A stretch of DNA of 64,000 bases, taken from the NCBI GenBank assembly GCA_027491435.1, contig JAOZFG010000004.1, positions 96,001 to 160,000 of the forward strand, given 5' to 3'. Made by a program: the position numbers and the translations under genes. Positions within the stretch are counted from its first letter, which is position 1. Every line of letters begins with the position of its first letter. This DNA comes from Thermoproteota archaeon (GTDB lineage: Archaea > Korarchaeota > Korarchaeia > Korarchaeales > Korarchaeaceae). The notes under the pieces are model-generated. The model was not told the origin of the DNA and did not search any database. It was given only the letters and a program-made list of their open reading frames with translations. Below are positions 76 to 49,079 of the stretch, in pieces.

Positions 76-513
76 TCAAAAGATCACCCTAATGGGGCCG
101 CCGGGATTTGAACCCGGGACCTCCGGCTCCCAAGGCCGGCATCCTACCAAGCTAGACCACGGCCCCTCCCTTAACTGGGTCTCAGGTATTAAAGACTTTA
201 CGGAGGAACAGTCCACCCTTATGACCGGCCCCTTGTTCACAACTAGGGAGACCTTCTCCCCCTTAACCCTAAAGCTAACCCTAGAGTGGGGCTGAAGTGG
301 TATTACCTTGTTTATAACCCTGGCGGACCCCCCGCGAAACTCAACCATCAATACGATTTCCAGGTAATCTTCTCCCTTATTTTCAACTGTTAAGAGGCCT
401 CGCTCACATCGGGCGATTACGTCAGATGAGTACAGGTGTCCGGTCGCCCCGTGGCTCAGAGTTAGGGCGGCTATGGAGGTGAGTAGGAAAGATACAAGGA
501 GCTTATTCCTCAC
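76..513 (-). CDS. Hypothetical secreted protein; its 3' end overlaps tRNA-Pro
   Basis: Signal-peptide-like N-terminus (MRNKLLVSFLLTSIAALTLSHGA); start overlaps the upstream gene; the last ~30 codons are the tRNA sequence. Confidence 0.5.
   Translation of the reverse strand: MRNKLLVSFLLTSIAALTLSHGATGHLYSSDVIARCERGLLTVENKGEDYLEIVLMVEFRGGSARVINKVIPLQPHSRVSFRVKGEKVSLVVNKGPVIRVDCSSVKSLIPETQLREGPWSSLVGCRPWEPEVPGSNPGGPIRVIF
93..166 (-). tRNA. tRNA-Pro (anticodon TGG), intronless
   Basis: Reverse complement GGGGCCG TGGTCTAGCTTGGTAGGAT G CCGGC CTTGGGA GCCGG AGGTC CCGGGTTCAAATCCCGG CGGCCCC A. It has a 7-bp acceptor stem, anticodon loop CTTGGGA and T-loop TTCAAAT; no CCA follows the discriminator. Confidence 0.95.
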
Positions 514-886
514 CGTTAACCCTCTCTACGAACCACCTGGGCTCTCCCCTTAGCCTTATGTGGGGAATCGTGATTCCCTCCGTTGTGGTTGGGGCCTCCG
601 AAACGTAAAACCCCTCCCCATTTTCATCAGCCCTGTATATGAGGAAGCCTCCGTCAACCCTCTCCTCTACGGTTACGTATGAGAATATGTCCGGCTTCAT
701 CGATCCGTAGTTCCCTGAAAAGGTGCCCAGGACGTACCTACCTAACTTATCGCTCCAGAAGCCTATTATAACTCCACCGGAGTTAGAGCTGGCTATAAGC
801 CTAAGTAAATCGTTCACAGAGGAAAGCTCAAAGAGTTCCATTTCCCAATCGCTACACTCTTTATTATCCCCCTCCATCTGGCTCAC
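503..886 (-). CDS. Small conserved-looking archaeal hypothetical protein
   Basis: 127-aa ORF overlapping both neighbours. LSSVNDLLRLIAS...IPHIRL resembles small TACK-archaeal uncharacterised proteins (recall only). Confidence 0.6.
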   Translation of the reverse strand: MSQMEGDNKECSDWEMELFELSSVNDLLRLIASSNSGGVIIGFWSDKLGRYVLGTFSGNYGSMKPDIFSYVTVEERVDGGFLIYRADENGEGFYVSEAPTTTEGITIPHIRLRGEPRWFVERVNGEE

Positions 887-1560
887 CCTTGTCCGATCGT
901 GAAGGACATGGTCCTAACTATATAAAACGTTGCTTTCATGGATTTAAGTAAGTCCCCGTCTGTGGTATAAATTCCCTTACCCTCGGAGTAAATGATCAGG
1001 CCCTCTTTATCCCCTATGACGCCAGAAAAGGGTGAATTACATATTCTAAGCTCCTCCAATAAATCCTTTGCCTTGATAGCGGCCCTAATGGAGGTGAACA
1101 TAACCTCCCAACCAGCCTCACCCCTGTAATGCCTCAAGAAGCTTTCTACTAGGTCCTCGTTCACTATAAAGAGGGCCTTCTTGACCCTGCCTGCTATGCT
1201 CTCAAATATGTATTTTATGATGCTCCCAAACACGGGGACTACCTTATCCTTACCTATCAGGTAGATGGGGAGCTTAAAGGGCTTAATAGCCCCTACAAGC
1301 GAGACTTTCCTGCCGAACTCCTCTATTACATGATTTAACAGCAAAGAGGTCAGCTTATCCCTAGGAGGTCCTATGAACAGAGTGGGCCTGTAACCGACTA
1401 TCCTTATCAGCCCCTTATCCTCTAAAGACCTGCCAACTTGGTAGACTTTGGTTCTAGGTATGCCTGTCATCCTGCTGATCTCGTCAGCTTTCATTGGCTT
1501 TTCCGCTTCTATGAGTGAAGAGAGCATGATCGCCTCGTATCTAGACAGCCCTAGCTCCAC
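883..1560 (-). CDS. TrmB-family transcriptional regulator
   Basis: N-terminal LGLSRYEA...ADEISRMTGIPRTKVYQVGRSLEDKGLI...RP matches the TrmB wHTH. Confidence 0.85.
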   Translation of the reverse strand: MELGLSRYEAIMLSSLIEAEKPMKADEISRMTGIPRTKVYQVGRSLEDKGLIRIVGYRPTLFIGPPRDKLTSLLLNHVIEEFGRKVSLVGAIKPFKLPIYLIGKDKVVPVFGSIIKYIFESIAGRVKKALFIVNEDLVESFLRHYRGEAGWEVMFTSIRAAIKAKDLLEELRICNSPFSGVIGDKEGLIIYSEGKGIYTTDGDLLKSMKATFYIVRTMSFTIGQG

Positions 1561-1580: not shown

Positions 1581-1883
1581 TTAACCCACCAATTCGGCCA
1601 CTATCTTGTTTCCCTGTACCCTCCTCACCCTCGCCTGAACCTTTATCCCCGGATCTGATGCCCCTACCACCGTTACGTTTCTCCCCTTGTATTTCCCTAC
1701 GCCCTCCCCCCTCCTGGTGACTGTCATTATTAGGACCTCTATTATGTCTCCGGGTTTCACGTCCTCCCCTTTCTCCTCCTTTACCTCATACCTGGTTATG
1801 TATATGCCTGTCCTACCCTTCCTACCCAACCTTCCGCGCCAACCCTTGGAAGCATCTTCTACTTTGGGATTCCTTCTCGGCAT
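1581..1883 (-). CDS. TRAM-domain RNA-binding protein with basic N-terminal extension
   Basis: VKPGDIIEVLIMTVTRRGEGVGKYKGRNVTVVGA...ARVRRV is a single TRAM domain; start set at ATG 1883 (MPRRNPK). Confidence 0.8.
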   Translation of the reverse strand: MPRRNPKVEDASKGWRGRLGRKGRTGIYITRYEVKEEKGEDVKPGDIIEVLIMTVTRRGEGVGKYKGRNVTVVGASDPGIKVQARVRRVQGNKIVAELVG

Positions 1884-1948
1884 GAATCCCCACAACCAAA
1901 GGAAACTTGTTGAAGCCTCAATAAAAATGTTCCCCTGCATTTACTCAT

Positions 1949-3178
1949 CTAGGGTGCTGTGAGAGGTCTTTTACCTATTTCGTTTCCCATCTCATCAAAT
2001 CTAACGTAACCTAAGGCCAAGGCGTCGAATTGATCCGTGGAGGCTAGCAAAGATGCCCTGCGGGACTTAAGGTCCAGCTCCTTAATTATTCCAACCCCCA
2101 CACAGGTTCGCCCTCTGATCAAACCAACGTAGAGGTTAGAGTAGTCTCTGACGTTCCCCAGCCTAACCTCCTTGTTCAACAGCCGAGATATGGTGTTGAC
2201 CCTGTACTGGTCAGCTTCCCCCTCATGCAGGATTACAAGGGAGTCAGGAGACTCCTCAACCCATACCACGTTAACGCTTAACAACTCCTTCAGAAGTCCC
2301 GAGTATTCAAGCCTTTGGTTCCCGGTCAACAAGGACGTGTTTAACAGCCTAATATCGTTAAGATCCACCTGAACCTCCCTAGAGTCCTTCATGAAGAAGT
2401 CGAACATCTCCATCCTGGCTGCCCTCCTATAATTTCTCGATTTTGAGGACACCTCTTGAGGAGATCTGACTTTTATCACCCTCGCCCAAGGTGGAAGGCT
2501 CCTCTCTATGTGTCTTAAATCTCCCTCATCCTTTTCTATTAACACGACGACGTCTGGGTCGTAGGCCTCAACTTTATACCTTTTTAACGCTCTTGCAGGG
2601 CTCCCGTCCACGTAGCCCGTGGTGTTCAACAACTGGGTTCCTTTACCGACCGTGTCGGAAAGGGCCTTGACGCCAACCACCATGGGAAGCAGGTGTCCTC
2701 GGGGAGTTGTATCCCCCACGAAGTACATGTGATCGGGGTTGAGCAGCCTGAGGTGCACGAACGTCTCCCCTACCTTTTTCGCGGCTATTACTCCAGGAGG
2801 GCCTAGATCAGACTGACCTACGTCCGAGTCCACTATAGCCACTTCCTCACCACTCGCTATCAGCTTGCTGGCAACGTACATTATCGTAGAACTCTTGCCG
2901 GAATCAACCCTGCCTATTAACATAACCTTTCGATCGAGAGCCTCTTCGACTAACTCATCCCACCAGCTGGGGATCGGGTTCTCGACCTTCCTAACTTCTC
3001 CGACTACCTCCACCTTAGATCTCTCCTGACTCCAGACTAGGACGTCGATGCCCTCCATGTCTACCGAGATAGAGTTTACGTCGAAATACCAAGCTTTAGC
3101 GCTGCCATCCAACACCTCCAACCTGAAGGGGCTCCTGAGAAGGATCCCCGTCCCCTTAGTCAGCTCCACAGTGACCAT
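1949..3178 (-). CDS. Clp1/Grc3-family polynucleotide 5'-hydroxyl kinase
   Basis: Walker A GRVDSGKS, DSDVGQSDLGPPG, LNTTGY and RRAAR motifs typical of archaeal Clp1. Confidence 0.9.
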   Translation of the reverse strand: MVTVELTKGTGILLRSPFRLEVLDGSAKAWYFDVNSISVDMEGIDVLVWSQERSKVEVVGEVRKVENPIPSWWDELVEEALDRKVMLIGRVDSGKSSTIMYVASKLIASGEEVAIVDSDVGQSDLGPPGVIAAKKVGETFVHLRLLNPDHMYFVGDTTPRGHLLPMVVGVKALSDTVGKGTQLLNTTGYVDGSPARALKRYKVEAYDPDVVVLIEKDEGDLRHIERSLPPWARVIKVRSPQEVSSKSRNYRRAARMEMFDFFMKDSREVQVDLNDIRLLNTSLLTGNQRLEYSGLLKELLSVNVVWVEESPDSLVILHEGEADQYRVNTISRLLNKEVRLGNVRDYSNLYVGLIRGRTCVGVGIIKELDLKSRRASLLASTDQFDALALGYVRFDEMGNEIGKRPLTAP

Positions 3179-3220
3179 TTAGCCCACCTCAGATAACGAT
3201 TTAAGTTAAGGTTGTAACAC

Positions 3221-4222
3221 ATGACTGTGGACGGCGACCGCTTTCACCTGATAGAGGTGCTGCTTGATTGTGAAAAACGTTTACACGTGGTTCCTGAGGG
3301 GTTTGAGGTTGTCGATGAAGGGGGCTTCAGGATCAGGCTTAGAGCGCCGACGGCCTCTCCTTCGGAACTGCTCGGCATGCTGTGGGAAATCTCCTTGGAC
3401 GAAAATGGGGAGCCATGCAGGATAAAGGAAGTCAAGGCACCAATCAATAGGAGGACTGGCTTCAGGGGAAAGACCGTCCTCAGGAGGATACTGGGGAGGG
3501 GCCCTATGCTAGCAGCCTCAATAGCTAAGGGAAGGATATTGGATCCCAGGAATCACGCCAAACTTTTCTCTGAGATGGCTAGACAGGGCTTAGATATAGG
3601 CATGGATCCGCTACACTATTCTGACTTAGAGCTTTACGAGAGAGCCTATCACATAGAGGAGGAGATCGACAGCTTTAAGGAAGAAGGAAAAAGAGTTTTA
3701 TACGTCTACAACGCCCCTAAGACAGCCGATTTACTGGAAAAGGTGATCTCTTTAGGGGCCAAGGCCTTCAGGGTGGACTCGTTAAACTTGGAGCTGTTTA
3801 ACTTGCTGGCCGATGTCAAGGTAATGATCTTCTTAACCAGACCTTACCTGCTCCCCCGATTAAGCCTAGAATCAATATACAACCTGCTCCCTCCCTTCGG
3901 CTTTGAAGCAATTGAAAGGCCGTCCTCAAGTAAATGGACTAAAGCGGAGCATTTAGATCGATTAATAAAGAGGACTGGTTCACTTCCAATGACCTCTCCG
4001 GATGTAACCCCAAGAAACTTGGATTACAACATGTCCGACCTAGACGTAATAATATGGGCCGATGTCTTCATCTACGCTCACCCCTCCGGGCCGTTAGCTG
4101 GAGTTAGGGCAGCTAGGGAGATGATAGATTCATACCTTAGGGGAGAGAGCCTCATAACAGTAGCGAGAAGGGTTGAGGAGGTAGGGCAGGCTGTTGAGAA
4201 ATGGGGCTTGGAGCTGAGGTAA
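3221..4222 (+). CDS. Highly divergent RuBisCO large-subunit-like protein lacking catalytic residues
   Basis: C-terminus AHPSGPLAGVRAAREMIDSYLRGESL...VGQAVEKWG matches the form III RuBisCO end (GHPDGPxAGARAVRQAIDA...ALEKWG). The GxDxxKDDE motif reads GLDIGMDPL. Confidence 0.75.
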   Translation: MTVDGDRFHLIEVLLDCEKRLHVVPEGFEVVDEGGFRIRLRAPTASPSELLGMLWEISLDENGEPCRIKEVKAPINRRTGFRGKTVLRRILGRGPMLAASIAKGRILDPRNHAKLFSEMARQGLDIGMDPLHYSDLELYERAYHIEEEIDSFKEEGKRVLYVYNAPKTADLLEKVISLGAKAFRVDSLNLELFNLLADVKVMIFLTRPYLLPRLSLESIYNLLPPFGFEAIERPSSSKWTKAEHLDRLIKRTGSLPMTSPDVTPRNLDYNMSDLDVIIWADVFIYAHPSGPLAGVRAAREMIDSYLRGESLITVARRVEEVGQAVEKWGLELR

Positions 4223-4935
4223 AGGTAGGGTGTTGCGGCTTTCCTATAAGCAAAAGAAGGTACTATGAAGAGTTCAGGGTTGTTGAAGTTCAGAAAACTT
4301 TCTATAAACCACCAAGAGTCGAAACAGCCCTGAAGTGGAGGGAAGAGGCTCCTGATGATTTCGAATTTACGGTAAAGGCTTGGATGGCTTTCACGCACAA
4401 CCCCAAATCTCCCATGTGGAGTAAGAGCGGCTTGCCTAGGAAAGAGGGTTATGGGCTCCTCAAGCCCACGTCCAAAAACTTAGAGAGGTGGGAGGAGTTC
4501 CTAAAGGTAGTAAGGGCTTTAAAATCGAAAGTCGTGGTATTTCAGAGCCCACCGTCCTTCAAGGCCACGGAAGAAAACATGAAGAACGTTAAAGAATTCT
4601 TCAGGTCGATCAGGGGAGACGTCGAGCTGATTGGCTGGGAGGTCAGGCATGAGAGCTGGAGCGGCCCCTTGAGGGAGATCCTACCAGAATTGGACTTGAT
4701 ACATGTGGTCGATCCACTTTATGAGCTTCCAGTTCACGGAAATGTGTTATACTTCAGGCTTCACGGGAGGAGGGAGGGCAGGAGAATAGTGTATAACCAC
4801 AGGTACACGGGTGATGAGCTAGAGGAGGTTATGAGGGTGCTAGCTGATCTGGGCAAGCCCGGCTACGTGATGTTCAATAACGGGATATTCATGAGGGAGA
4901 GCGCCCTAAACTTCCTGAAGAAGATTCAGACGTAG
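4201..4935 (+). CDS. DUF72 (YecE/UPF0759) family protein
   Basis: VGCCGF, VVEVQKTFY, FTVKA...TH, FQSPPSF, WEVRH, YFRLHG and YVMFNN motifs. Confidence 0.9.
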   Translation: MGLGAEVKVGCCGFPISKRRYYEEFRVVEVQKTFYKPPRVETALKWREEAPDDFEFTVKAWMAFTHNPKSPMWSKSGLPRKEGYGLLKPTSKNLERWEEFLKVVRALKSKVVVFQSPPSFKATEENMKNVKEFFRSIRGDVELIGWEVRHESWSGPLREILPELDLIHVVDPLYELPVHGNVLYFRLHGRREGRRIVYNHRYTGDELEEVMRVLADLGKPGYVMFNNGIFMRESALNFLKKIQT

Positions 4936-6212
4936 TGCCAACCCTCCAAAGTTGACCAGTTCCACCTCAACGTCTCGGGAACTGCCATCCCATAGACTAC
5001 AGATCCTCTCCACACGCTGTATTGCGGGTCTGAAACCATCTTGGGCTTTGTTTCAATTCCCAGCTTGGAGAGCATTAGCTTCATCTTGGTGGGCGAGTCA
5101 GTCGCTACCCCCTTGAGAGCGGGTGGAACTGACCAGTTGAAGGCGCCTCCTGATAGTATCAGGTTCTTGGATATGGCAGCCTGTAACTCCACAGGAGTCT
5201 TAGCGATGGCCCTTTTTACCGCCTCAGCCAAGCTAACATTCCCAGGTATAACCTCACCACCTATTAGAGTGTCCTTGGGCGGGGTGAACCCCCTGCTATA
5301 GTAGCTCTCGAAGATCTCGTGGGAGGGGTTGAAGAAGTACTCGCCGATCAGGAACCTCTGCCAGACCTTGTCGCCCATGTCCACCTCGACAGCTGTTCCG
5401 GGTATCCTGAAGACGGACTGGAGTACGCTTGGGTGCTCTTTCGCCCACTTAATGGCCTTATCTAGGTCTATAGGGACAAGGCCCACTGACTCTTTGAATA
5501 TCCTAACGAACTTCTCCTCCCTGGCCAGCTCGGGGTAGCCTAGATCCCTAAGTATTTGAGCAGCTATCCTATCGGAATCGCTCCCTCCCCTGTTTAGCGG
5601 TATAAGGGCCGTCCTTATCACGTCCCTGCTTATGGGCGTTATCTGAGTGTTACCATGACCAGCTTCTATCACTATGCAAGTGGTGGCCCTCTCAGCTATG
5701 GCAACTGCTAGGGGTTGAGGTATTATGGTAACAGCCCTTACCAAGTTCCCCCCTTCCTCAGCGTTCACCTCCTCGTGTATGCTAAACATCCTTTCAAACA
5801 TGTAAGTGGGGGACTGCGCTGCGAGGGAAACCACCACGTAAAATCCGTTGAAGGGGGTCCCGTCAACGGCCTTCTCACCTGGGTAGTACTTCTTCAACCC
5901 ATATCTCACTAGCTCCTTGATTACCCTCCAACCCCTCTCGTCGTTTCTCTCCACTATACCGTTCCTCATGGGGTAGTGTAACCGGGTCAAGTCAGCCCTA
6001 GACTCGAGGTATTCGGTGACCTCGGGGCCGACGATAACCTCTCTCGGAGTAATCCCCCTGATCTCAGCTGAAACCTTTGAGATCTTTGGGAAGTAGCCCC
6101 TGTTCTCAACCACGTCGGGTCCCTTCTTCATTAGCCACCAGGGTCCAAACTTATAGAAGGACGTGCCGAAATCAGAGGCGAACACGTGCTTGCCAGACTT
6201 CGACAGCTTCAC
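4926..6212 (-). CDS. Crenactin (archaeal actin homologue)
   Basis: DFGTSFYKFGP (P1), YPMRNG, PQPLAVAIAE, EAGHGNTQITPIS (P2), NRGG, RFLIGE, LSGGAF, PQYSVWRG and EGW, all collinear with Pyrobaculum crenactin; GGAGGTGA precedes the GTG start. Confidence 0.95.
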   Translation of the reverse strand: MKLSKSGKHVFASDFGTSFYKFGPWWLMKKGPDVVENRGYFPKISKVSAEIRGITPREVIVGPEVTEYLESRADLTRLHYPMRNGIVERNDERGWRVIKELVRYGLKKYYPGEKAVDGTPFNGFYVVVSLAAQSPTYMFERMFSIHEEVNAEEGGNLVRAVTIIPQPLAVAIAERATTCIVIEAGHGNTQITPISRDVIRTALIPLNRGGSDSDRIAAQILRDLGYPELAREEKFVRIFKESVGLVPIDLDKAIKWAKEHPSVLQSVFRIPGTAVEVDMGDKVWQRFLIGEYFFNPSHEIFESYYSRGFTPPKDTLIGGEVIPGNVSLAEAVKRAIAKTPVELQAAISKNLILSGGAFNWSVPPALKGVATDSPTKMKLMLSKLGIETKPKMVSDPQYSVWRGSVVYGMAVPETLRWNWSTLEGWHYV

Positions 6213-6813
6213 TCACCTCCACAAGCCTCGTCAGTTCCTCAGCCTTTAACAGTCTTGAGGGTTCCAACTTACCACTCTCCATGTCGACGGGGATCCCTTC
6301 CCTCATAAGGATGAAGGCCTTAACTATGGGTCCGTAGGAGTACCCTCCTACCCTTAAATCGCTTCTCACGACCCTGTGGCAGGGGATTATCAGGGGTATC
6401 GGGTTCTTGGCCATGTAGTTTCCTATCGCCCTGGGAGATGTCCCCACAGCCTTGGCCAGCTCGCTGTACGTGGTGTACCTCCCCTTAGGTATCAGCTTGA
6501 CCGTCTTTAAGGCCTTCACCATCTTCTCCCTAGGTGGCAGCAATACCCTGATCTTTGGAGGGTTAGCCTCCTTTCCTAGGTAAAGCTCGTCGATGTAGTT
6601 AGCTATTATGCTGGTCATCGGGTTGTAGCTGTCCCTATAAAGGAACACCCTTTCCCCCCAGGCAGTTATGCAGTTTATCCTGAGGTCGGCCAACGCCTCC
6701 TCCTCATTCTTAAGGGGTATGGTGTTGCATACCAACCCCTTCCTAGTTATGCCAACCCCAACGTACCCTGAGCTCACCTCTTCCACCGAAATCACTATTT
6801 GCAGTCGCATCAC
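6172..6813 (-). CDS. ogt: Methylated-DNA--protein-cysteine methyltransferase
   Basis: IPKGRYTTYSELA...RAIG...NPIPLIIPCHRVV...GGY active-site motif. Confidence 0.93.
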   Translation of the reverse strand: MMRLQIVISVEEVSSGYVGVGITRKGLVCNTIPLKNEEEALADLRINCITAWGERVFLYRDSYNPMTSIIANYIDELYLGKEANPPKIRVLLPPREKMVKALKTVKLIPKGRYTTYSELAKAVGTSPRAIGNYMAKNPIPLIIPCHRVVRSDLRVGGYSYGPIVKAFILMREGIPVDMESGKLEPSRLLKAEELTRLVEVSEAVEVWQARVRL

Positions 6814-6870
6814 CCTTCAGGAGGTGACCTCCCACTCGTCTTATTTAAAGGGAATCTGGGCAGCGGTAAT

Positions 6871-7920
6871 ATGATGGAAGTAATACGGGTGGATGGGAGT
6901 TACGGGGAAGGAGGGGGCTCGATACTAAGGTATGCCCTGGCCTTATCCGCTGTCACCATGAAGCCAGTCGAGGTCTACAATATTAGGGCAAAGAGGAGCA
7001 ATCCAGGGTTGAGACCACAACACCTAAATGCGGTGAGGGCTTTAGCGATGATATCATCGGCTAAAGTAGAGGGGGCTTACGTGGGATCGATGAGGATCTA
7101 CTTCGAGCCGAGAAGCCGCACAGGAGGGAACTTCAAGGTAGACATAGGCACCGCTGGGAGCATAAGCCTGATAATACAAGCCATACTGCCGGCCGCCCTT
7201 TTCTCCGAAAGGGAAAGCAGGTTCACCATAAGGGGAGGGACCGATGTCAGGTTCGCGCCCCCCATAGACTACATGAGGGAAGTCTTCTTGAAGAACATGA
7301 AGAGGTTAATGGGGGTTGAGGCTGAGATAAGGGTGATTAAGAGGGGGCATTACCCTAAGGGCGGTGGTCTAGTTGAGCTTACGGTGAAGCCCTCTGAGTT
7401 GAAGCCATTCAAGGCCGTTGAAAGAGAAGAAGTAAGCTCAATAATGGGGAGAGCCCACGCCGTTAAGTTGCCTAAACATGTCGCGGACAGAATAGCCTCT
7501 TCAGCCGAGTCAATCCTTAGGGAGAGGGGATTCCGGGTGAGCGTAGAGAGGGAATGGTCCAAGAACGATCATCTAGGTCCCGGCGCTGGGATAACCTTAT
7601 GGACTGAAGGTGAAGTGGCAATCGGGGGAGATTCATTAGGAGAGAGGGGAAAGCCCAGCGAAAAGGTGGGGCGAGAGGCAGCCCTCAAACTTCTTAATGA
7701 GCTAGGGACGGGAATGGCCTTGGATAGTCACATGGGAGACATGATAATTCCCTATATGGCCCTAGCCAAGGGCGAATCCGTGGTCGGCATATCCCAGCTT
7801 ACGATGCACGCAATCTCCAACATATGGCTGACTGAGAAGTTCCTTCCTGTGAAGTTCAACGTTGAGGGCCAGCATGGGAAGCCTGCTAAGGTCTCTGTGA
7901 TGGGAAGTGGTCTTCCATGA
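6871..7920 (+). CDS. rtcA: RNA 3'-terminal phosphate cyclase
   Basis: DGSYGEGGGSILR, NPGLRPQHL, TAGSISL, GGTDV, RGHYPKGGG and DSHMGD motifs; start set at ATG 6871. Confidence 0.95.
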   Translation: MMEVIRVDGSYGEGGGSILRYALALSAVTMKPVEVYNIRAKRSNPGLRPQHLNAVRALAMISSAKVEGAYVGSMRIYFEPRSRTGGNFKVDIGTAGSISLIIQAILPAALFSERESRFTIRGGTDVRFAPPIDYMREVFLKNMKRLMGVEAEIRVIKRGHYPKGGGLVELTVKPSELKPFKAVEREEVSSIMGRAHAVKLPKHVADRIASSAESILRERGFRVSVEREWSKNDHLGPGAGITLWTEGEVAIGGDSLGERGKPSEKVGREAALKLLNELGTGMALDSHMGDMIIPYMALAKGESVVGISQLTMHAISNIWLTEKFLPVKFNVEGQHGKPAKVSVMGSGLP

Positions 7921-9578
7921 ACATGGACGAGCTGGAGTTCAGGAGGCTGGTTAAGTACGTGGCCGAGAAATCCGGCCTATCGGAGGAAGAGGTTCTAGAA
8001 AGGGTTAACAAGTACATACAGGAGATGTCCGGTTTAATAAAACTGGACGGAGCGCTCTACCTCGTGGCTAGCGATTTAAACGTGGAATTGCCCATGCCCG
8101 GCTCTCCTGTACACGAGACCATACAGATAGGGAAGCTCGTCCCAGGGATGAGGAGGGCGGTAGTCGAGGGAAGGATAGTCAAGATGTACGGGGTTATAAA
8201 ATACGTGAACAAGAGTGGTGAGCCTTCAGAGAGGCTCGAGTTCAGAATAGAAGACGAAACCGGGGAGGCCGTCGTGGTGATCTGGTCTAAGAGCATGGTA
8301 GATTCTTTGAGGGATAAGCTCAAGGAAGGTGATGTGATCAGAATAATAAACGCCAGGGTCAGCCACAGCTATGGAGAGCTGAGTTTACACGTGGACTCCT
8401 CAGGGGAGGTTGAGCTAATTAGATCCTCTCAGGGTTATCCGCTCGTCAACGAGAGGGTGTATACCGTGTCAAACATCCCCATGAAACATGGAGAGGAGGT
8501 CGACGTTAAAGGCAGGGTCGTCAGGATGTTCGAACCGTCCACATTTGAAAGACAGGACGGGAGCCTTGGGAGGAGATCCTCTTTTCTGCTGGGAGATGAT
8601 GAGAGTTCTATAAGGGTAGTGCTCTGGGGCTCTCAGGCCGACAACGTCACCAAGCTTAAGGTGGGCTCCCAGGTCCTGATAAGGAACGCTAGGGTGGTAA
8701 TAAGGGATTTCGGCATTGAACTCCACAGCTCTCCCAGGACTAAGATAGAGGTGTTAGGTGAGACCGAGGACTTATATCATGAGTTTAAAGTGCTGTACAG
8801 ATTTGAGCCAGAAGTATTGAGCGTGAAGAAGTTAGTCTACATGGACTTACTCGTGCAATCGGATAGCAAGAGGTCCATACTCAGGGTATGGGGAGAAGAC
8901 ATGGTGTCTAAGCTCTCATCTGCTCTGCTGCCAGCTATCATAAGGGTGAAAGGGACTTATTCCAGGGATGGTATACTCCACCTGGGTAAGAGCGGTAGCT
9001 TAGAGTTAGTGGAGGAGGGGGTTGGAGAGCTCCCTGAAGGGATTGCTAGGCTAGCTAGACAGGTTAAATACAAGAGATCATGGATAGGAGAGTCGTCAGA
9101 CGGTTACAGGGAGTTCAGGGGAACCATAACATGGGTTAGCGAGAGGGCCCGGATAAGTTGGTACTGCCCTAACTGCGGATCCCGCGTTGAGTACGAATAT
9201 GACAGGTTCTTCTGCCCTAACTGCGGTGAAATAGAGGATGCCGAACCTCTCTTAGGATTTTCCTTCATGATAGATGACGGTACGGGCGTAGCCAGGGTTC
9301 AAGTCTACGGGAGGAGGGCAGAGCTCTTGTTAGGGGCCAAGACGCTAGAAGTCATAGAGAAGGCCAACGAGTATGGCGAGGAGGACTTCTCCATACCGTT
9401 GGACTTCCTCTCCCAGGAATTGGTCGGAAAGGAGGTAGTAGTCAGGGGGAAGGCAGCCTACCTGGAAACGGGCATGGTCAGAGTCATACTGGACGAGATG
9501 GAGGATGCTGACTTAAGGGAAGAGGCTGAAAAGCTGGCTGACGAAATCGAGAGAATCTGGTTAAACGTCGAGAGATGA
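7917..9578 (+). CDS. rpa: Replication protein A (multiple OB folds plus Zn ribbon)
   Basis: Repeated OB motifs (IEDETG..VVIW, LGDDESSIRVVLW, IDDGTG) and a CPNC-x12-CPNC Zn finger; ATGA overlap with rtcA. Confidence 0.85.
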   Translation: MNMDELEFRRLVKYVAEKSGLSEEEVLERVNKYIQEMSGLIKLDGALYLVASDLNVELPMPGSPVHETIQIGKLVPGMRRAVVEGRIVKMYGVIKYVNKSGEPSERLEFRIEDETGEAVVVIWSKSMVDSLRDKLKEGDVIRIINARVSHSYGELSLHVDSSGEVELIRSSQGYPLVNERVYTVSNIPMKHGEEVDVKGRVVRMFEPSTFERQDGSLGRRSSFLLGDDESSIRVVLWGSQADNVTKLKVGSQVLIRNARVVIRDFGIELHSSPRTKIEVLGETEDLYHEFKVLYRFEPEVLSVKKLVYMDLLVQSDSKRSILRVWGEDMVSKLSSALLPAIIRVKGTYSRDGILHLGKSGSLELVEEGVGELPEGIARLARQVKYKRSWIGESSDGYREFRGTITWVSERARISWYCPNCGSRVEYEYDRFFCPNCGEIEDAEPLLGFSFMIDDGTGVARVQVYGRRAELLLGAKTLEVIEKANEYGEEDFSIPLDFLSQELVGKEVVVRGKAAYLETGMVRVILDEMEDADLREEAEKLADEIERIWLNVER

Positions 9579-22395: not shown

Positions 22396-22483
22396 TGGTG
22401 CGGGGGGTGGGATTTGAACCCACGAACCCCTAAGGGAGCGGATCTTAAGTCCGCCGCCTTTGTCCTGGCTCGGCCACCCCCGC
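22396..22483 (-). tRNA. tRNA-Leu (anticodon TAA), CCA encoded
   Basis: Reverse complement GCGGGGGTGGCCGAGCCAGGACAAAGGCG GCGGA CTTAAGA TCCGC TCCCTTAGGGGTTC GTGGGTTCAAATCCCAC CCCCCGC ACCA; long variable arm. Confidence 0.96.
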
Positions 22484-27683: not shown

Positions 27684-28734
27684 GGCCAAGGTAAGATATC
27701 TGGCAGTCAGGACTCATGGACTCTACTCGCACCTCCTAGATCTGGATGAAATGAGGTCTTGGGCCCTAATAGACAGCGACGAAGAGCTGTTCAATAGAAT
27801 GACTAACACGGATTATGGGGCCTTCTTTGAGGGACCCCAAGACTTGTCTAACGTTTCAAAAGTGGAGGAGGCCATATACCGTTCCCTTTCAGTTAGGTTT
27901 AGAAGGCTGCTATCCCTGGCCAGGGGCACTAAGATGGAACTGCTCCTGAGGAACTTCCTCAGCAAATACGACATAGAGAACTTGAGGAGGATAGTCTTCT
28001 CCCTAACCTATGGTAGAACCCCGGAGGAGCTCTACCTAATACCTATAGGGGGATTTAAGCTGGACATAGGTAAGCTGTCGAAGACGACTAAGGTAGAACA
28101 CCTGGTGGACCTGTTGGAGGACAGAGGGCTGGCTAAAATAATTCAGGGCTGGTATGCCAGCGAGTACAGGGAACCTTACAGGTTAGACCTAAGCCTCGAC
28201 TCGTACTACGTAAGAACGCTGTTGTCTATGTTGGAGGGCATTAGAAAGTCAGTAGTTAAGAAAAGAAGTCCAGCCGGTCAGTTAATACTGTCTTACGCCG
28301 AGAGCTACATTATGAGAAGCGCGTTGAAGGCCCTTTACTTAGACATAAAGGGTGACGAGGTAACCAGCATTTATGGGAAGCTTCCGTTTAAGAGATTAAT
28401 GAACGTGATTAATTCTTCCTCAAACATAAATGAATTGCTGGATAACCTGCTAAAAATTGAACCATATAAGCCTTATGCCTATGAGATAATGGAGGCCATG
28501 AAGGAAGTTGGAGAGCCTTGGGTGATCGAGCACACTATACAGAAGAAGATATACTTAGAATCCCTTAGAATTTCACTTAAACGGCCAGTGAGTGAAGCAT
28601 ACATTCTAAAATACCTCAACGCAACTGAGTGGGAGGCTCAGAACGTAAAGACGATATTGCTGGGGAGAATAAGCAAGATATCAAGGGATACCCTGTATAA
28701 GCTGTTGGAGCTTCCCACTACAACATCTTTCTAG
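27676..28734 (+). CDS. atpC: A/V-type ATP synthase subunit C (d)
   Basis: TDYG, KYDIENL, LDSYY, EWEAQNVKTILLG pattern; position in the cluster. Confidence 0.75.
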   Translation: MVKAKVRYLAVRTHGLYSHLLDLDEMRSWALIDSDEELFNRMTNTDYGAFFEGPQDLSNVSKVEEAIYRSLSVRFRRLLSLARGTKMELLLRNFLSKYDIENLRRIVFSLTYGRTPEELYLIPIGGFKLDIGKLSKTTKVEHLVDLLEDRGLAKIIQGWYASEYREPYRLDLSLDSYYVRTLLSMLEGIRKSVVKKRSPAGQLILSYAESYIMRSALKALYLDIKGDEVTSIYGKLPFKRLMNVINSSSNINELLDNLLKIEPYKPYAYEIMEAMKEVGEPWVIEHTIQKKIYLESLRISLKRPVSEAYILKYLNATEWEAQNVKTILLGRISKISRDTLYKLLELPTTTSF

Positions 28735-28809
28735 AAACCCCTTCCCCATTATTTACTTCAAAAGAAAGTACAAACTAAGTCTAAGTGTAAAGCGACAGGG
28801 TTCTTTCCT

Positions 28810-29124
28810 CTATGCGGACGCCGTGGCGGTGCCTAACTCAGTTAACTCATATACTCCTGCACTCACCTTCTTTATCAATCCCTTCCTGACCAAAAATCTG
28901 ACCTTTCCAGCCACCTTCTGTGTACTCATTTTGGCTTTTTCAGCTACTTCTTTTATCCTAGCTGGCGACCCTAGGTCCAAGAAGGCCTTAAGTATAGTTT
29001 TTGTGTCAGGATCTACCTCTATCGGCTTAACAGTGGGTTCGACGGTAGCCTTTTTGCTAGCCTTTCTACCGGAAGTCCTCTTACCCTTAGAGGATGTCTT
29101 CTTACTGCCCTTCTTACATGGCAT
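28810..29124 (-). CDS. Small winged-helix DNA-binding protein with Lys/Arg/Ser/Thr-rich N-terminal tail
   Basis: ILKAFLDLGSPARIKEVAEKAKMSTQKVAGKVRFLVRKGLIKKVSAGVYELTELG is a wHTH; GGTGA RBS before ATG 29124. Confidence 0.8.
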   Translation of the reverse strand: MPCKKGSKKTSSKGKRTSGRKASKKATVEPTVKPIEVDPDTKTILKAFLDLGSPARIKEVAEKAKMSTQKVAGKVRFLVRKGLIKKVSAGVYELTELGTATASA

Positions 29125-29159
29125 AATGTCACCTACGGATACTAGCTTACCCATAAATT

Positions 29160-29620
29160 ATAAACGTAACTAGGGGCTCTAATGGCCTACTATTATCTCG
29201 TTATATGCAAAATTAAGCCTTTAAGCTGATAAAATAATTAATAGATTAACGTATATTATATAAAATAAATTTGGTTAATCTCCAATCCATTTATTAGTTT
29301 GTCACTTAATGGATCATATCCTAGGATTGAGAGTTATAGAGGGATATCTGACCGTCATTTTCAACATTAAATCTAATTGGGAGTTATCTTTGGATTTATT
29401 ATTAAATTGGATAAATTATCAAAATATTATTTATTATAGTGGGATATATTTAAGAAGATTTCAGAAAAATGTTAGCGAGCCCTAAACGTCAAGCTATTGA
29501 ATAATCCTGTGGTTCAGTTAATAACCAATCATCGTTTCCGCCTGACTAAAGCCGTTAAGCTTCTGATTCGTCAATTGTTGAATCACGCCTATAAAATAAT
29601 ATGTCTACGAGTACCTAGGA
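29160..29620. promoter_or_regulatory. AT-rich divergent promoter region
   Basis: No convincing ORF; 9 G+C in 60 nt at 29221-29280; TATAAAA about 40 nt upstream of 29630. Confidence 0.5.
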
Positions 29621-29629
29621 GGTGGCGAG

Positions 29630-29884
29630 ATGGTTCGAGTTATCGATTGGAACAATTTCCCCGATGTCCCCCCCGGGTTTAAGGAGGTAGATGTGGTTGA
29701 GGTTAAGAGAGTTTATGACTACGAATTACCTCCCTTGGTCGTCTACGTAGGTGTGGCCGTTACTAATGAGGGCGAAGAGATTCCAGCTATAGCTGTCGTC
29801 GAAGAAGGCAACAACTACGCTAAGCTTTACCTGTTAATAGATAAGGAAACCGAGGCCGAGGAGCTCATATCAGCCTTTGCTTAA
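29630..29884 (+). CDS. Small acidic hypothetical protein (84 aa)
   Basis: Strong RBS AGGAGGTG; 17 D/E versus 6 K/R; followed by a T-run. Confidence 0.75.
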   Translation: MVRVIDWNNFPDVPPGFKEVDVVEVKRVYDYELPPLVVYVGVAVTNEGEEIPAIAVVEEGNNYAKLYLLIDKETEAEELISAFA

Positions 29885-29942
29885 GCCTGGCTTAGGAGTT
29901 ACTTTTTTCTTATTTTCAATCACTCACTCTCGGTGATCGGGT

Positions 29943-31874
29943 TTGATTAGGCGTATCACTGTTTTAGGAGCCGGTACCATGGGTCATGGTATAGCTCAAG
30001 TTGCTGCCATGGCCGGTTACGAGGTTATAATGAGGGACATCGAGGAGAAGTTTATCGAGTCAGGCTACAACAGGATAAAGAAGAGCCTAGAAAAGTTAGT
30101 GAAGAAGGGAAAGATAACTAGAGAGGAAGCAGATCTCATCCTGAAGAGGATAAAGAAGACCACTAACTTAGAGGAGGCAGTCAAGCAAGCGGACTTCGTA
30201 ATAGAGGCTGTCCCCGAGGTGTTCGAGATAAAGGCCGAGGTCTTTAAGGCTGTTGATGAGCTGGCTCCCCCTCACGCTATAATAGCTACTAACACAAGCA
30301 GCTTACCAATATCCGAGCTGGCAGAGGCTACTAATCGACCAGATAAATTCGTTGGAATGCATTTCTTCAATCCTCCTCAAATAATGAAGCTAGTGGAGGT
30401 TGTTAGGGGCAATAAAACGTCAGAGCAGACGGTCAACACGACTTTGGAGCTGGCAAAGTCCATGAAGAAAGAACCTGTTGTGGTGAACAAGGACGTCCCC
30501 GGCTTCATAGTCAACAGGGTGCTAGTGAGATGGCTCAATGAGGCCTGCCTAATAGTCGAAAGGGGAGAATCGGACATTTTGACGGTTGACTCTTCCCTTA
30601 AATATGTAGCAGAGTTGCCTATGGGGGCGTTTGAGTTATCCGACTTCATAGGAATCGACGTCATGAGGGACATAATAAGGGCCATGGTAAAGAGAGGTTT
30701 CAAGTTAACTCCCTGCAAGTCCTGGGATAAGCTAGTTGAGGAAGGGAAGCTGGGCGCAAAGTCCAGTTTAGGCTTCTACGATTGGTCTTCAGGTAGGCCC
30801 AACATACCTAAGGAACTCTCCACTAAGTTCGATCCCAAGCAAGTGCTCGCTATGGCGGTCAACGAGGGAGCTTGGTTGGTCAGGGAAGGAGTGGCTTCAA
30901 CGGAGGACGTGGATAAGGCTGTCATCTTAGGATTAAACTTCCCCAAGGGGGTGCTCTCCATGGGGGATGAATGGGGACTGGACGTCGTCAAATCGATAAT
31001 AGAGGGGAAGAGATCTAGGTACGGCCTGCCTGAGTATGAGGTAGACCCTCTTATTGAGGAACTGGTCTCAAAGGGGTTCTTGGGGGTTAAGTCTGGCAAG
31101 GGGTTTCATGACTACGGGTTAAGGGAGGAGGACCTGAACCAGGTCAAGTATAAGGCAACCCCTCCTATAGCGTGGATTATCCTGAACAGGCCTGATAAGC
31201 TGAACGCACTTGACATGGAGTTATTAAATTCGCTAAGGAAAGCCCTGGATATGGCGTTAGATGATGAGATAAAAGTGGTGGTGATAACCGGTTCAGGGAA
31301 GGCCTTCTCAGCGGGAGCTGACGTCTCAATGTTCAAAGGCCTATCCCCCATCGACGCCTATCGACTATCTAGGGAGTTGAACGAGTTCTTCGACGAGCTG
31401 GAGAGGTATCCTAAGCCTACCATAGCCTCTATAAACGGGTTCGCTTTGGGTGGAGGTTTAGAGCTAGCGATGGCGTGTGATTTGAGGGTTGCTAGCGACA
31501 GGGCTCAACTGGGTCAACCTGAAATAACTCTAGGTATAATCACAGGAGCCGGCGGATCTAAGAGGCTTCCGAAGCTTGTAGGGTTAGCCAAAGCCAAGGA
31601 ACTGCTCTTTACAGGGGACATAATATCAGCTGACGAGGCGGAGAAGATAGGGCTGGTCAACAGAGTTGTCCCACACGAGAAGTTGGAGGAGGAGGTCAGG
31701 TCCTTGGCCCTTAAAATAGCGTCAATGCCGTCTAATTCGATTAGGCTCTATAAATCGATATTAAACGGGGAGCAAGAGCCCCTAGCCTTCGGATTGGTGT
31801 TCTCAACAGAGGATTCAAAGGAGGGGATTAACGCTTTCCTCGAAAAAAGGAGGCCGAAGTTTTCCGGAAAATAA
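29943..31874 (+). CDS. 3-hydroxyacyl-CoA dehydrogenase / enoyl-CoA hydratase fusion
   Basis: GAGTMGHGIA, EAVPE, NTSSL, GMHFFNP, GFIVNR; C-terminal LNRPDKLNAL, FSAGAD, GGGLELA, GQPE crotonase motifs. Confidence 0.95.
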   Translation: MIRRITVLGAGTMGHGIAQVAAMAGYEVIMRDIEEKFIESGYNRIKKSLEKLVKKGKITREEADLILKRIKKTTNLEEAVKQADFVIEAVPEVFEIKAEVFKAVDELAPPHAIIATNTSSLPISELAEATNRPDKFVGMHFFNPPQIMKLVEVVRGNKTSEQTVNTTLELAKSMKKEPVVVNKDVPGFIVNRVLVRWLNEACLIVERGESDILTVDSSLKYVAELPMGAFELSDFIGIDVMRDIIRAMVKRGFKLTPCKSWDKLVEEGKLGAKSSLGFYDWSSGRPNIPKELSTKFDPKQVLAMAVNEGAWLVREGVASTEDVDKAVILGLNFPKGVLSMGDEWGLDVVKSIIEGKRSRYGLPEYEVDPLIEELVSKGFLGVKSGKGFHDYGLREEDLNQVKYKATPPIAWIILNRPDKLNALDMELLNSLRKALDMALDDEIKVVVITGSGKAFSAGADVSMFKGLSPIDAYRLSRELNEFFDELERYPKPTIASINGFALGGGLELAMACDLRVASDRAQLGQPEITLGIITGAGGSKRLPKLVGLAKAKELLFTGDIISADEAEKIGLVNRVVPHEKLEEEVRSLALKIASMPSNSIRLYKSILNGEQEPLAFGLVFSTEDSKEGINAFLEKRRPKFSGK

Positions 31875-34214: not shown

Positions 34215-36134
34215 TCAGTAGTAGTACCAAATGGTCCAATATTCGTCTATGTTTTCTCCCCTCTCTTTTAACCTCATCAGGTAGTCATATATGGGAACGT
34301 CCACGTAAGGCCACGGGTTCACGGGGGCTATTCCCTTCTCCCACGGGTGCCACACGTATATCCTGCTTCCAGTCTTAGGCATTATGGCTATGAGTTCTCT
34401 GTCCTGCCAAGCCCTTATGTGGTTCTTGCCCAGGGCGGGAACGTTAAACACGGGCTCATCGGTTCTGAACTGGCCTGGAAGTAGTCTGGCCTCCTCCTTT
34501 CTCTCCTGAGCTATCCTAGCTATGGGCACCAGGTAGTCCTTCTGTTCGAACTTACCCTTCGGGTAGAAGTTGTAGTACGGGTCGACTCCTATCATCTTCA
34601 TGCCTATCCTGGCTAACACGTACTGAAACCTCCTTGAAGTCTCGAAGTGGTACACCTGCTGGTTGTATACGTATATCCCGTGCTCCTTGAGGGTCTTGAC
34701 AGCCTGGGCCATGTAGGGGGTTATCTCCTCAGCGCTCTCTATGTGAGTAACAAACGATATATTCCTCTTGCCGGGCTCTATGAAGCTGGAGAGCATCTCA
34801 GCATACTCATTGTTTATCCTCATAGGGACAGTCACCACGATCCTGCTTCCTATCCTGATCTCCCTTATGTGGTCGATCTCGGAGAGCTTGCTCAGTATGT
34901 ACTCCATGTACTTGTTGTTGAGTATTGCAGGATCTCCTCCTGTGAGGAGGACGTCGATCAGGGAGTCATGCTGGGCGAACCACTCAATGGCCTTCTCGAC
35001 CAGTTTGGGAGAGGGTATTCCAACGGGGCTCATGGCTTCCTCTATCTCCCAATTCCTCTGACAGTACACGCAGATCTGCGGACAGGTGTCAGCTACCTTT
35101 ATTATAGCTACCATCGGGTACCTCCTGGTCACCAGCTCAAGCGGAGAGGTGTCGTGCTCCTTCATGAAGTCGAAGACGTAGTCCCTATTCTGCCTATTCC
35201 TTATCATCTGCTCCAGGTAGTAGGAGGACGGAATCACTTGAGCCCTTACCTGGGGGTCCCTCTTCCTGTCCGCCCTGGTGAAGTCAAACAGGTGCAGGTA
35301 GTAGGGGGTTATCCCGAAAGGTATCCTGTTCTCTATCGCAGTCCTCATGTTCCTTACATCCTCTTCAGTCAGAGGAACCAGCTCCTTCAACATGTCGACG
35401 TGGTGGAGTCTCTTGAATACGTTCTTGAAGTGCCACTTGTAGTCATACCAGTCATCCTCGGTGGCGCCCAAGTAGTCCAGTATCTTCTTCTTGTTTTGCT
35501 CTCTCTCCTCAATGACCTTCGGATCCAGCCCGAAGGTGTACCTGCTGGTGAACTGATTGATAACCTTGCCCAACTCGTCAAGGTACTCAGACCTAATTAA
35601 GGCCGCCTGTCTCCCCTCGCTCTTCTGGAAGAGCTCCACTAGCTTGGTCTTCTCGCCAAGGATGTCGTGGAGCCACCCCTTGGAGTACTCTGCGGTCCCG
35701 TGGATAGCCTTAAATAAGTGCTTGAACTCCATTATAAAGCCCATTCCAACTTCATTAAGGACTTCGGGATCCTCCTTGGCTATCCTATAAAGGTACTCGA
35801 GCGTGCTGAAGGTGGCTATCTTCTCATTCTCAGGTGAGATAATGTTTTTAAATACTCTGATGGCCTCTAATGCCAGGGCATAATCTAACCTATGTACCTT
35901 TATCCTGCCCTCCCTGAATGACCACTCCAGGTCGTTTAGGTACTGGTAGAGGCGTTTCCTGGCCTCCTCTAGGTCTCCGCTCTCCCGGAGTAGCTTGTAA
36001 ATCTCCCTCCCTTCCTTCCACATCTCATCTATTGCAGCGATCTTCTCCTGGAGGGGGGCATCCTTCCAGGAGATCTTACCTAGTATATCCACACCGGCCT
36101 CCACTATGGTCTCCAAGGCTCTCACCGGCGTCAT
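34215..36134 (-). CDS. KamA-family (lysine 2,3-aminomutase-like) radical SAM protein, long form
   Basis: GITPYYL, RRYP, CPQICVYCQR (CxxxCxxC), LLTGGDP, IRIGSR, NQQV, DPYY. Confidence 0.88.
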   Translation of the reverse strand: MTPVRALETIVEAGVDILGKISWKDAPLQEKIAAIDEMWKEGREIYKLLRESGDLEEARKRLYQYLNDLEWSFREGRIKVHRLDYALALEAIRVFKNIISPENEKIATFSTLEYLYRIAKEDPEVLNEVGMGFIMEFKHLFKAIHGTAEYSKGWLHDILGEKTKLVELFQKSEGRQAALIRSEYLDELGKVINQFTSRYTFGLDPKVIEEREQNKKKILDYLGATEDDWYDYKWHFKNVFKRLHHVDMLKELVPLTEEDVRNMRTAIENRIPFGITPYYLHLFDFTRADRKRDPQVRAQVIPSSYYLEQMIRNRQNRDYVFDFMKEHDTSPLELVTRRYPMVAIIKVADTCPQICVYCQRNWEIEEAMSPVGIPSPKLVEKAIEWFAQHDSLIDVLLTGGDPAILNNKYMEYILSKLSEIDHIREIRIGSRIVVTVPMRINNEYAEMLSSFIEPGKRNISFVTHIESAEEITPYMAQAVKTLKEHGIYVYNQQVYHFETSRRFQYVLARIGMKMIGVDPYYNFYPKGKFEQKDYLVPIARIAQERKEEARLLPGQFRTDEPVFNVPALGKNHIRAWQDRELIAIMPKTGSRIYVWHPWEKGIAPVNPWPYVDVPIYDYLMRLKERGENIDEYWTIWYYY

Positions 36135-37089: not shown

Positions 37090-37146
37090 AGGTTGGATTA
37101 TTTATCCAACCTAATAAAAAGGTGTCCTCTACAGGCAACAACGGCT

Positions 37147-49073: not shown

Positions 49074-49079
49074 GTTAAT

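Follow-up and report, generated by a model that had tools for sequence, protein, structure and literature searches.

A catalytically dead RuBisCO homologue under purifying selection in an archaeal order

The locus and the fold of its product

The window analysed here is a stretch of 64,000 nucleotides (nt) from the genome of a Thermoproteota archaeon assigned to the Korarchaeaceae (GenBank assembly GCA_027491435.1, contig JAOZFG010000004.1, positions 96,001 to 160,000 of the forward strand), and the subject of this work is a gene near its start that encodes a catalytically dead homologue of the RuBisCO large subunit. The gene is an open reading frame (ORF) of 333 amino acids (aa) at 3221..4222 (+) with zero internal stops, as had been read in an original prediction made from the sequence alone, which described an intact 333-aa ORF without frameshifts. 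Translation might instead begin at a GTG at 3227, to which the start of the orthologue at another locus, L026, aligns. The gene is divergent from a Clp1-type kinase gene and overlaps a DUF72 gene at its 3' end; both arrangements had been predicted, and both are real and kept in the loci of relatives. The features of this part of the window are the following:

3221..4222 (+): catalytically dead RuBisCO large-subunit homologue, identified from its ORF, homology, structural model, fold matches and selection
1949..3178 (-): Clp1-type P-loop kinase gene (PF16575, Clp1_P, 112.9 bits), divergent from the RuBisCO homologue
3179..3220 (no strand): divergent intergenic region of 42 nt with the A/T-rich element ATTTAAGTTAAG at 3199-3210, read from the sequence
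4201..4935 (+): DUF72 gene, 244 aa (PF01904, 140.5 bits, above the gathering threshold of 25.3)
4201..4222 (+): overlap of 22 nt between the end of the RuBisCO-like gene and the start of DUF72, read from the sequence

The A/T-rich stretch in the 42-nt gap between the RuBisCO homologue and Clp1 is a candidate archaeal TATA region common to both divergent genes. At the other end, the ATG of DUF72 (4201) is formed by the AAATGG of the conserved EKWG codons of the RuBisCO homologue, and no other start codon precedes the conserved VKVGCCGF of the DUF72 protein.

The protein consists of a trimmed N-terminal alpha/beta domain (approximately residues 1-80), a TIM barrel and C-terminal helices, and its sequence homology to RuBisCO appears weak but real. 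The Pfam model RuBisCO_large (PF00016) matches residues 271-328 only, at 24 bits and thus under the gathering score of 30.1; relatives from the clade described below clear this model with 35-109 bits (e.g., 97.5 bits for L067). In a phmmer search against the PDB, the best match is the MtnW structure 2oek (4.6e-8), and the form III structure 6hun follows with 9.9e-8. The best-scoring NCBIfam model is the form III equivalog TIGR03326, on which the window protein obtains 35.9 bits against a cut-off of 497.45 and the canonical RuBisCO genes of related genomes 540-720 bits. The cut-offs of the MtnW models are also missed (34.7 versus 409 bits for NF007095 and 31.2 versus 513.6 bits for TIGR03332). 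The AlphaFold2 model obtained with a 53-row alignment has a predicted local distance difference test (pLDDT) of 90.4 and a predicted template modelling score (pTM) of 0.90, and its best Foldseek matches are form III RuBisCOs (E ~1e-16, TMq 0.72-0.76). VIA-align places 325 of the 333 residues on 3a12_D (model residues 8-332 onto residues 22-442) with a Z of 29.8 and a root-mean-square deviation of 3.4 Å, in a comparison in which all RuBisCO forms and RuBisCO-like proteins (RLPs) lie within one Z unit of each other. The window gene encodes a paralogue of the RuBisCO large subunit in which, going by this model, both domains of the fold are present. The pseudo-RuBisCO that had been proposed earlier is borne out as regards the fold by the model and by the fold comparison, in which form III comes first in Foldseek and reaches the Z given above.

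The former active site

The active-site motifs were read by aligning the window protein to canonical form III sequences from related genomes; the numbers of the canonical residues (K201, H327 and others) follow the spinach numbering. The first six of the following segments were located by this alignment and the last by homology and conservation:

3524..3532 (+): AKG, residues 102-104, in the place of K175-P-K177 at the end of barrel strand 1
3602..3613 (+): MDPL, residues 128-131, in the place of K201-D-D203-E204
3830..3841 (+): FLTR, residues 204-207, in the place of HxH294-R295
3911..3922 (+): IERP, residues 231-234, in the place of LH327VG
3995..4003 (+): SPD, residues 259-261, in the place of the S379-G-G381 phosphate site
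4058..4069 (+): ADVF, residues 280-283, in the place of the G403-G404-G405 phosphate loop
4076..4207 (+): C-terminal block AHPSG...REMIDSYLRGE...AVEKWG, residues 286-329

The swap to MDPL removes the carbamylated lysine and both Mg ligands, and the D129 within it is kept clade-wide. In FLTR the histidines are gone and the arginine (R295) is retained. H327 has become E232, and E232-R233-P234 forms a conserved motif specific to the clade. The segment that comes next after LHVG in RuBisCO, loop 6 (GKLEG, with K334), is deleted, and the ESSTGTW segment (E60/T65/W66) is absent from the window protein in the alignment to form III. The register of ADVF against GGG is uncertain by one column; its D281 is kept clade-wide. 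The part best conserved, both with form III and within the clade, is the C-terminal block (H287, P288, G290, G294, D303, R307, G308, E309 and W328), in which AVEKWG occupies residues 324-329. The motif calls of the original prediction (MDPL, FLTR, SPD, DVF, no ESSTGTW and an EKWG helix) read the same in this alignment, which adds AKG, E232 and the loss of loop 6.

Set against the residues of a bona fide RuBisCO (K201/D203/E204, K175/K177, H294/R295, H327, K334, S379/G381, G403/G404 and E60/T65/W66), the window protein keeps only R295, and as a RuBisCO homologue without the residues essential for carboxylation it falls within the definition of an RLP. K201 or D203 is kept in 0 of the 20 clade sequences, and K-x-D-E in 24 of the 30 other RuBisCO and RLP sequences of the same alignment. 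Because the catalytic residues are lost, the protein would be expected to perform neither the carboxylation of ribulose-1,5-bisphosphate (RuBP) nor the Mg-dependent enolisation of the known RuBisCO-like enzymes, and RuBP-like ligands seem unlikely with acidic residues now in both phosphate loops.

Within subclades as well as between them, the replacement motifs are conserved (xDPL, F-L-x-x-R, IERP, T-S/A-P and D-x-x-x-Y-x-HP). At the mouth of the barrel, conservation is clade-wide for D129 (end of strand 2), E-R-P (strand 6) and D281 (strand 8), whereas the positions at strands 5 and 7 vary between genera. This pattern suggests that the mouth of the former active site has been remodelled, not randomised.

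Distribution, selection and ancestral neighbourhood

A word-indexed search returned three close homologues of 333-338 aa, with identities of 80, 64 and 66%, and an exhaustive HMMER pass over 1.84 billion representatives gave 38 hits at E<=1e-3, of which just 8 reached E<=1e-10; a metagenome scan found one locus, L026. Where public records give the homologues a name, it is 'RuBisCO large subunit-like' or 'hypothetical', and they come from metagenome-assembled genomes of uncultured Thermoproteota, Crenarchaeota or Bathyarchaeota. Among 32 genomes of the GTDB phylum with a completeness of 80% or more, in which a full-length member was counted when it exceeded 350 bits on the clade profile, the dead gene is present in 8/17 genomes of the window's genus (g1), 4/4 of g2, 2/2 of g3, 1/1 of g4, 1/3 of g5, 1/1 of g6 and 0/4 of g7-g9.

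In a 50-row IQ-TREE tree, all 20 clade sequences lie together on the same side of a branch with a Shimodaira-Hasegawa-like approximate likelihood ratio test (SH-aLRT) value of 100, which parts them from both the canonical sequences and the MtnW-like/RLP-like group. The tree is an unrooted quick search; fragments and near-duplicates (P0005, P0010, P0011, P0016, P0017, P0019, P0020, P0027, P0030, P0037, P0038 and P0041) and the loci L007, L009 and L010 were left out of it. Of the phylogeny proposed with the original prediction, this tree shows the split from these two groups; for the placement relative to form IV it lacks labelled references for all six described subclades. The internal branching of the clade follows the genera, and the 333-aa type of the window is sister to the 356-361-aa type of its genus. 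Horizontal acquisition of the dead gene was considered and rejected, since the clade tree tracks the genera and synteny is conserved; the clade is small, and its inheritance has been vertical inside a single archaeal order.

In the tree, the closest sequence that does not belong to the clade is P0008 (422 aa). It resembles the clade in being already without K201 and D203 (VDGES), H294, H327 and GGG, and differs from it in keeping EESAGTW, KPKVG, full length and 283 bits on TIGR03326, so that it looks, at the sequence level, like a half-degenerate intermediate. Scores on TIGR03326 run 283, 188, 112, 100, 64, 41 and 36 bits, the window's type being last, and the clade accordingly has the look of a graded series of degeneration. 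Five sequences outside the clade are also without K201, namely P0022 (FDDEV), P0032 (MDDEL), P0029 (LDDRF), P0039 (IEDST) and P0040 (RDVVA), and in the last two GGG is replaced by ENS and NEG, respectively; these may represent other cases in which an active site degenerated independently. At L071 (6076-7722, genome G043) the dead homologue lies inside an open frame of 549 aa that extends far beyond it on the N-terminal side, which might reflect a gene fusion, a wrongly called start or a rearrangement, and the Clp1 gene was not found upstream of it.

Selection was estimated as the ratio of nonsynonymous to synonymous substitution rates (dN/dS) with the Nei-Gojobori method on six orthologue pairs with unsaturated dS (0.2-0.7). 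The ratio is 0.094-0.140 for the RuBisCO homologue, 0.104-0.126 for Clp1 and 0.074-0.147 for DUF72; between the window gene and L026 (64% identical) it is ~0.10, with a saturated dS (2.8). Protein identities between the window and the genus-type loci are 34-39% for the RuBisCO homologue, 45-50% for Clp1 and 50-56% for DUF72, which suggests that the homologue evolves somewhat faster than its neighbours but is clearly constrained. None of the 19 clade copies detected in genomes contains a stop. Of the 333 positions, 97 are conserved across the two subclades, and 42 of these 97 carry the majority residue in the seven most distant members as well; clade-wide residues include D129, E232-R233-P234, D281, Y285-H287-P288, D303, R307-G308-E309 and W328. 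The claim that the gene is intact and not decaying is upheld by dN/dS values equal to those of Clp1 and DUF72 and by frames that are open in all copies. A decaying pseudogene is excluded for practical purposes: early decay in which stops have not yet been acquired is hardly credible, since the repeated losses of the gene and the position of the window's subclade as the shortest and most degenerate of the 283-36 bit series are outweighed by a dN/dS of ~0.1 equal to that of the neighbours, by open frames in the window gene, in three close homologues (63-80% identical) and in all 19 clade copies, and by the 97 conserved positions across subclades only 34-39% identical.

The ancestral surroundings of the gene are seen outside the window's genus, where an IF-2B-family gene is convergent (tail-to-tail) with the dead gene in 9/9 loci at a spacing of -6 to +29 nt (in eight loci identified by Pfam and in the ninth by coordinates). 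Three of these nine neighbours were scanned with TIGR00511, as was one such gene at a g5 locus without the dead gene, and they reach 420-436 bits (cut-off 314); judged by these scores, the four scanned genes are bona fide ribose-1,5-bisphosphate (R15P) isomerases. In these loci Clp1 is divergent upstream in 6/9, and DUF72 lies just past the isomerase in 6/9. Form III RuBisCO and AMP phosphorylase, the companions of this isomerase in the AMP (adenosine monophosphate) pathway, occur in 9/9 genomes outside g1 (families f1 and f2) that carry the dead gene, and AMP phosphorylase is above cut-off in 13/13 genomes of other genera counted.

In the window's genus, canonical RuBisCO was found in 0/17 genomes and AMP phosphorylase above cut-off in 0/17. 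The window's own genome (99.46% complete) contains no canonical form III RuBisCO, no match to TIGR03327 (AMP phosphorylase) and no R15P isomerase; the one strong IF-2B homologue in it is of the MtnA type (390.6 bits on TIGR00512, cut-off 279; 223.6 bits on TIGR00511, under 314.1) and is located away from the dead gene. The search for a canonical rbcL and for the AMP-salvage genes that the original prediction had proposed has thus been run, with none in this genome and with neither canonical RuBisCO nor AMP phosphorylase above cut-off in the 17 of the genus. R15P isomerase was typed in the own genome, and the other 16 genus genomes were judged from the IF-2B copy number, which is one strong copy in the genus genomes against two in the other genera. 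A mere relocation of the isomerase within the genus was rejected on the same two grounds. The window's genus has thus lost form III RuBisCO, AMP phosphorylase and R15P isomerase, yet 8/17 of its genomes keep the dead gene, and 7 of these 8 keepers have no other RuBisCO homologue. In the keepers, no isomerase gene separates the dead gene from DUF72 any longer, and the ends of the two overlap by 22 nt.

The own genome, alone among the 17, contains a second RuBisCO homologue of 412 aa on contig C9 (L001 1372-2610 -; L076 4470-5705 -). It retains KPS, KDDE, VHRTMH and SGG, is without ESSxGTW (EQSLGLK), the GKLEG loop and the EKWG C-terminus, reads GRG for GGG, and scores 170.6 bits on TIGR03326, far under the cut-off. 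C9 is a 7.9-kb contig with a HepT/MNT-type pair and unannotated membrane proteins beside the homologue, which may be mobile or foreign. In another genome (G046), a canonical 440-aa RuBisCO gene (C8:175-1197) lies ~10 kb from the dead paralogue (C8:11024-12199).

Within the genus, the 22-nt overlap is identical in 11/11 loci, and it is also present in 8 named records that partly duplicate those loci; Clp1 is the divergent partner in all genus loci, and the spacing between it and the dead gene is 34-131 nt across loci. This arrangement makes it likely that the dead gene and DUF72 are co-transcribed and translationally coupled in the genus. The gene order found family-wide is TrmB, glycerate-2-kinase-like, Clp1, dead RLP, R15P isomerase, DUF72, crenactin, Ogt-like, RtcA and RPA-like. 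The window alone is without the glycerate-2-kinase-like gene, which adjoins Clp1 in 14/15 other genus loci examined; the idea that this kinase and the RuBisCO homologue are mutually exclusive at the locus was dropped, as 8/8 genus-type loci have both. The idea that DUF72 is lost together with the RuBisCO homologue was also dropped, as DUF72 occurs in 32/32 genomes. At L083 (3351-3635, genome G003, without the dead gene) Clp1 is only a 94-aa fragment, ~800 nt from the kinase gene. A complex prediction for the RuBisCO homologue and DUF72 (score 0.00, mark 0.32) weighs neither for nor against an interaction.

Around the genes listed above, the window carries the following:

883-1560 (-): TrmB-like gene
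1581-1940 (-): small ORF
4926-6212 (-): crenactin-like gene
6172-6813 (-): Ogt-like gene
6799-7920 (+): RtcA gene
7917-9578 (+): RPA-like OB-fold protein gene
93-166 (-) and 22399-22483 (-): two tRNA genes (Rfam)

A listed 145-aa ORF (76-513, -) overlaps the first tRNA gene (93-166) and is probably spurious over that part. The G+C content drops to 0.415 (28001-30000), 0.443 (36001-38000) and 0.449 (48001-50000), against ~0.50-0.52 elsewhere in the window.

Known systems and possible function

The system that the window protein most resembles in origin is form III RuBisCO (Thermococcus kodakarensis, PDB 3a12/1geh), with which it has in common the two-domain fold and the C-terminal GHPxG...EKWG block, and whose feeding enzyme, R15P isomerase, adjoins its clade relatives. 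It differs from form III in being ~100 residues shorter, in having lost the catalytic residues, in lying outside the canonical group in the tree and in occurring in a genome without the AMP pathway. With the form IV RLPs (MtnW, 2oek/2zvi; Chlorobium RLP, 1ykw; and the Rhodospirillum-type isomerase) it is linked as a non-carboxylating RuBisCO homologue, and with MtnW in particular by the best phmmer match in the PDB and by a structural tie (Z 29.5). The Rhodospirillum rubrum RLP is paired with MtnA, a sugar-phosphate isomerase of the IF-2B family, as the dead gene was ancestrally with its own IF-2B-family neighbour. To our knowledge, however, the characterised RLPs are Mg-dependent enzymes that all keep the K201/D203/E204 site, from which the clade is set apart by the counts for K201/D203 and K-x-D-E given above. 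HisZ, which serves HisG, is a dead paralogue kept as a regulatory subunit, and the likeness, an analogy only, lies in a catalytically dead paralogue under selection beside genes of the same pathway; the difference is that here a partner is not demonstrated and that the active paralogue is gone in the window's genus. The window protein fits a loose definition of an RLP, and its mode of action is that of neither form III RuBisCO nor the characterised RLPs of form IV.

No clade of this kind and no link between DUF72 and RuBisCO was found described in the literature searched, and passages of PMC6389311, PMC13454268 and PMC12787533 treat only catalytically plausible forms or partially conserved RLPs. 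According to PMC13454268, 56.8% of rubisco sequences lie in tree regions without a clade designation, so that undescribed clades are to be expected.

The reading that we favour, with moderate confidence, is that the gene encodes a binding or partner protein without carboxylase activity, which in this genome would not depend on RuBisCO and would be produced together with DUF72. The dead paralogue would work here without any RuBisCO, and it would bind through the remodelled polar mouth of the barrel (D129, R207, E232-R233, D261, D281 and H287), through the conserved C-terminal helices, or through both; it is probably made together with DUF72 from one transcript. Metabolite binding, protein binding and a new metal-independent activity are all compatible with the data, and the protein may also be a scaffold or a ligand sensor, as the original prediction had suggested. 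A role as regulator of a true RuBisCO is discounted in this genome because the genus has lost RuBisCO, AMP phosphorylase and the isomerase; the hetero-oligomeric regulator of a true RuBisCO that had been proposed earlier is therefore not supported here, in a genome that is 99.5% complete and in which the pathway genes were not found.

A number of observations weigh against the favoured reading. As regards the requirement for the protein, the dead gene has been lost cleanly, with no remnants, at least twice in the genus and once in g5, and is thus dispensable. In the 7 genus genomes without it that were examined, the deletion is clean, with a gap of 20-155 nt between Clp1 and DUF72 where Clp1 is intact (6/7 loci), and a tree of Clp1, DUF72 and crenactin requires at least two losses within the genus; the two g5 genomes without it retain the isomerase and the pathway. 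As regards the remodelled site, former active-site positions are conserved in 9/19 cases against 97/333 overall, which is only a modest excess, and a purely structural role may be the reason for their conservation. The confident model was built on a 53-row alignment that contained canonical RuBisCOs, and AlphaFold2 run from the 4 close homologues alone reaches a pLDDT of 40.5. As regards DUF72, this gene is present in all 32 genomes, with or without the dead gene, and in the other genera a gene on the opposite strand lies between the two, which are then not one transcription unit, so that the DUF72 link may be an accident of the deletion of the isomerase gene. Adjacency is in any case weak functional evidence, since the order of the whole neighbourhood is inherited across the family. 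The coupling to DUF72 that had been predicted thus holds for the overlap, which is conserved in the genus, and not for the association at large, since DUF72 is universal and the genes lie apart in other genera.

A new enzymatic function is possible, though it is not what we expect. The site would have been rebuilt from carboxylates and arginines (D129, R207, E232, R233, D261, D281 and H287) to act on a sugar-phosphate-like or nucleotide-derived substrate, either metal-independently or with a new metal site. The conservation of the replacement motifs within and between the subclades fits this proposal, as does a purifying selection as strong as that on the neighbouring enzymes, and the ancestral neighbour, R15P isomerase, makes a ribulose bisphosphate. 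However, both phosphate glycine loops have become acidic or bulky and loop 6 is deleted, which makes a RuBisCO-like binding of bisphosphates unlikely; moreover, the motifs are not uniform among genera, the positions at strands 5 and 7 lacking clade-wide conservation, and the characterised RuBisCO-like enzymes, as far as is known, all use the K201 carbamate/Mg site.

A more far-reaching proposal, which we regard as doubtful, is that the clade would be the first true pseudoenzyme branch of the RuBisCO superfamily, i.e., an ancient non-catalytic paralogue of the AMP pathway beside R15P isomerase that in the window's genus, once the pathway was lost, was rewired into an operon with DUF72, a putative endonuclease, under a promoter region shared with the Clp1 polynucleotide kinase, where the fold would take part in the processing of nucleic-acid ends or sense a metabolite on behalf of that processing.

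A subunit or regulator of a catalytic RuBisCO is plausible for the ancestor, in which form III would have been the partner, and the co-occurrence of the dead gene with form III and AMP phosphorylase in 9/9 genomes outside g1 speaks for it, as does the C-terminal segment of 60 residues being the one best conserved with form III. After the loss of the pathway, the dead gene was lost in 9/17 genus genomes and its branch lengthened, again in line with such a role. That the protein is still a non-catalytic subunit of a competent RuBisCO-family protein, with the 412-aa C9 homologue as the partner in this genome, is quite unlikely: this homologue retains KDDE, HR and SGG but is confined to one genome, on a 7.9-kb contig beside the HepT/MNT pair. 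In addition, 7/8 genus keepers have no other RuBisCO homologue and maintain purifying selection on the dead gene, and two g5 genomes retain the whole pathway without it.

Very unlikely, in our judgement, is a role as physical partner of, or accessory to, either the DUF72 protein or the Clp1 kinase, by which the RuBisCO fold would take part in nucleic-acid end processing or repair, with RtcA and Ogt encoded nearby. The 22-nt overlap, which suggests translational coupling at every genus locus, the tight promoter region of 34-131 nt shared with Clp1 and the RtcA, Ogt-like and RPA-like genes less than 5 kb away would fit this role, and a DUF72 protein, Tm1631, is computationally predicted in PMC3828134 to be an endonuclease IV-like DNA-binding enzyme. 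Nevertheless, DUF72 and Clp1 persist unchanged where the dead gene is deleted, there is no co-transcription with DUF72 in the other genera, and the regional gene order is inherited family-wide.

RuBisCO-like proteins are the main window on the roles of the RuBisCO fold before and beside carbon fixation. The clade described here has been under purifying selection since before the genera of this archaeal order diverged, with the carbamate-Mg site fully lost, and the persistence of selection after the loss of the site implies that the fold is kept for something other than enolate chemistry. The order moreover offers a natural experiment, with genomes that have the pathway and the dead paralogue, the pathway alone, the dead paralogue alone or neither, and these four classes open the function to comparative and biochemical tests. 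For annotation, the clade is a warning that matches to the RuBisCO large-chain domain in these archaea need not mean the incorporation of CO2: the protein retains the RuBisCO fold for another job than CO2 fixation.

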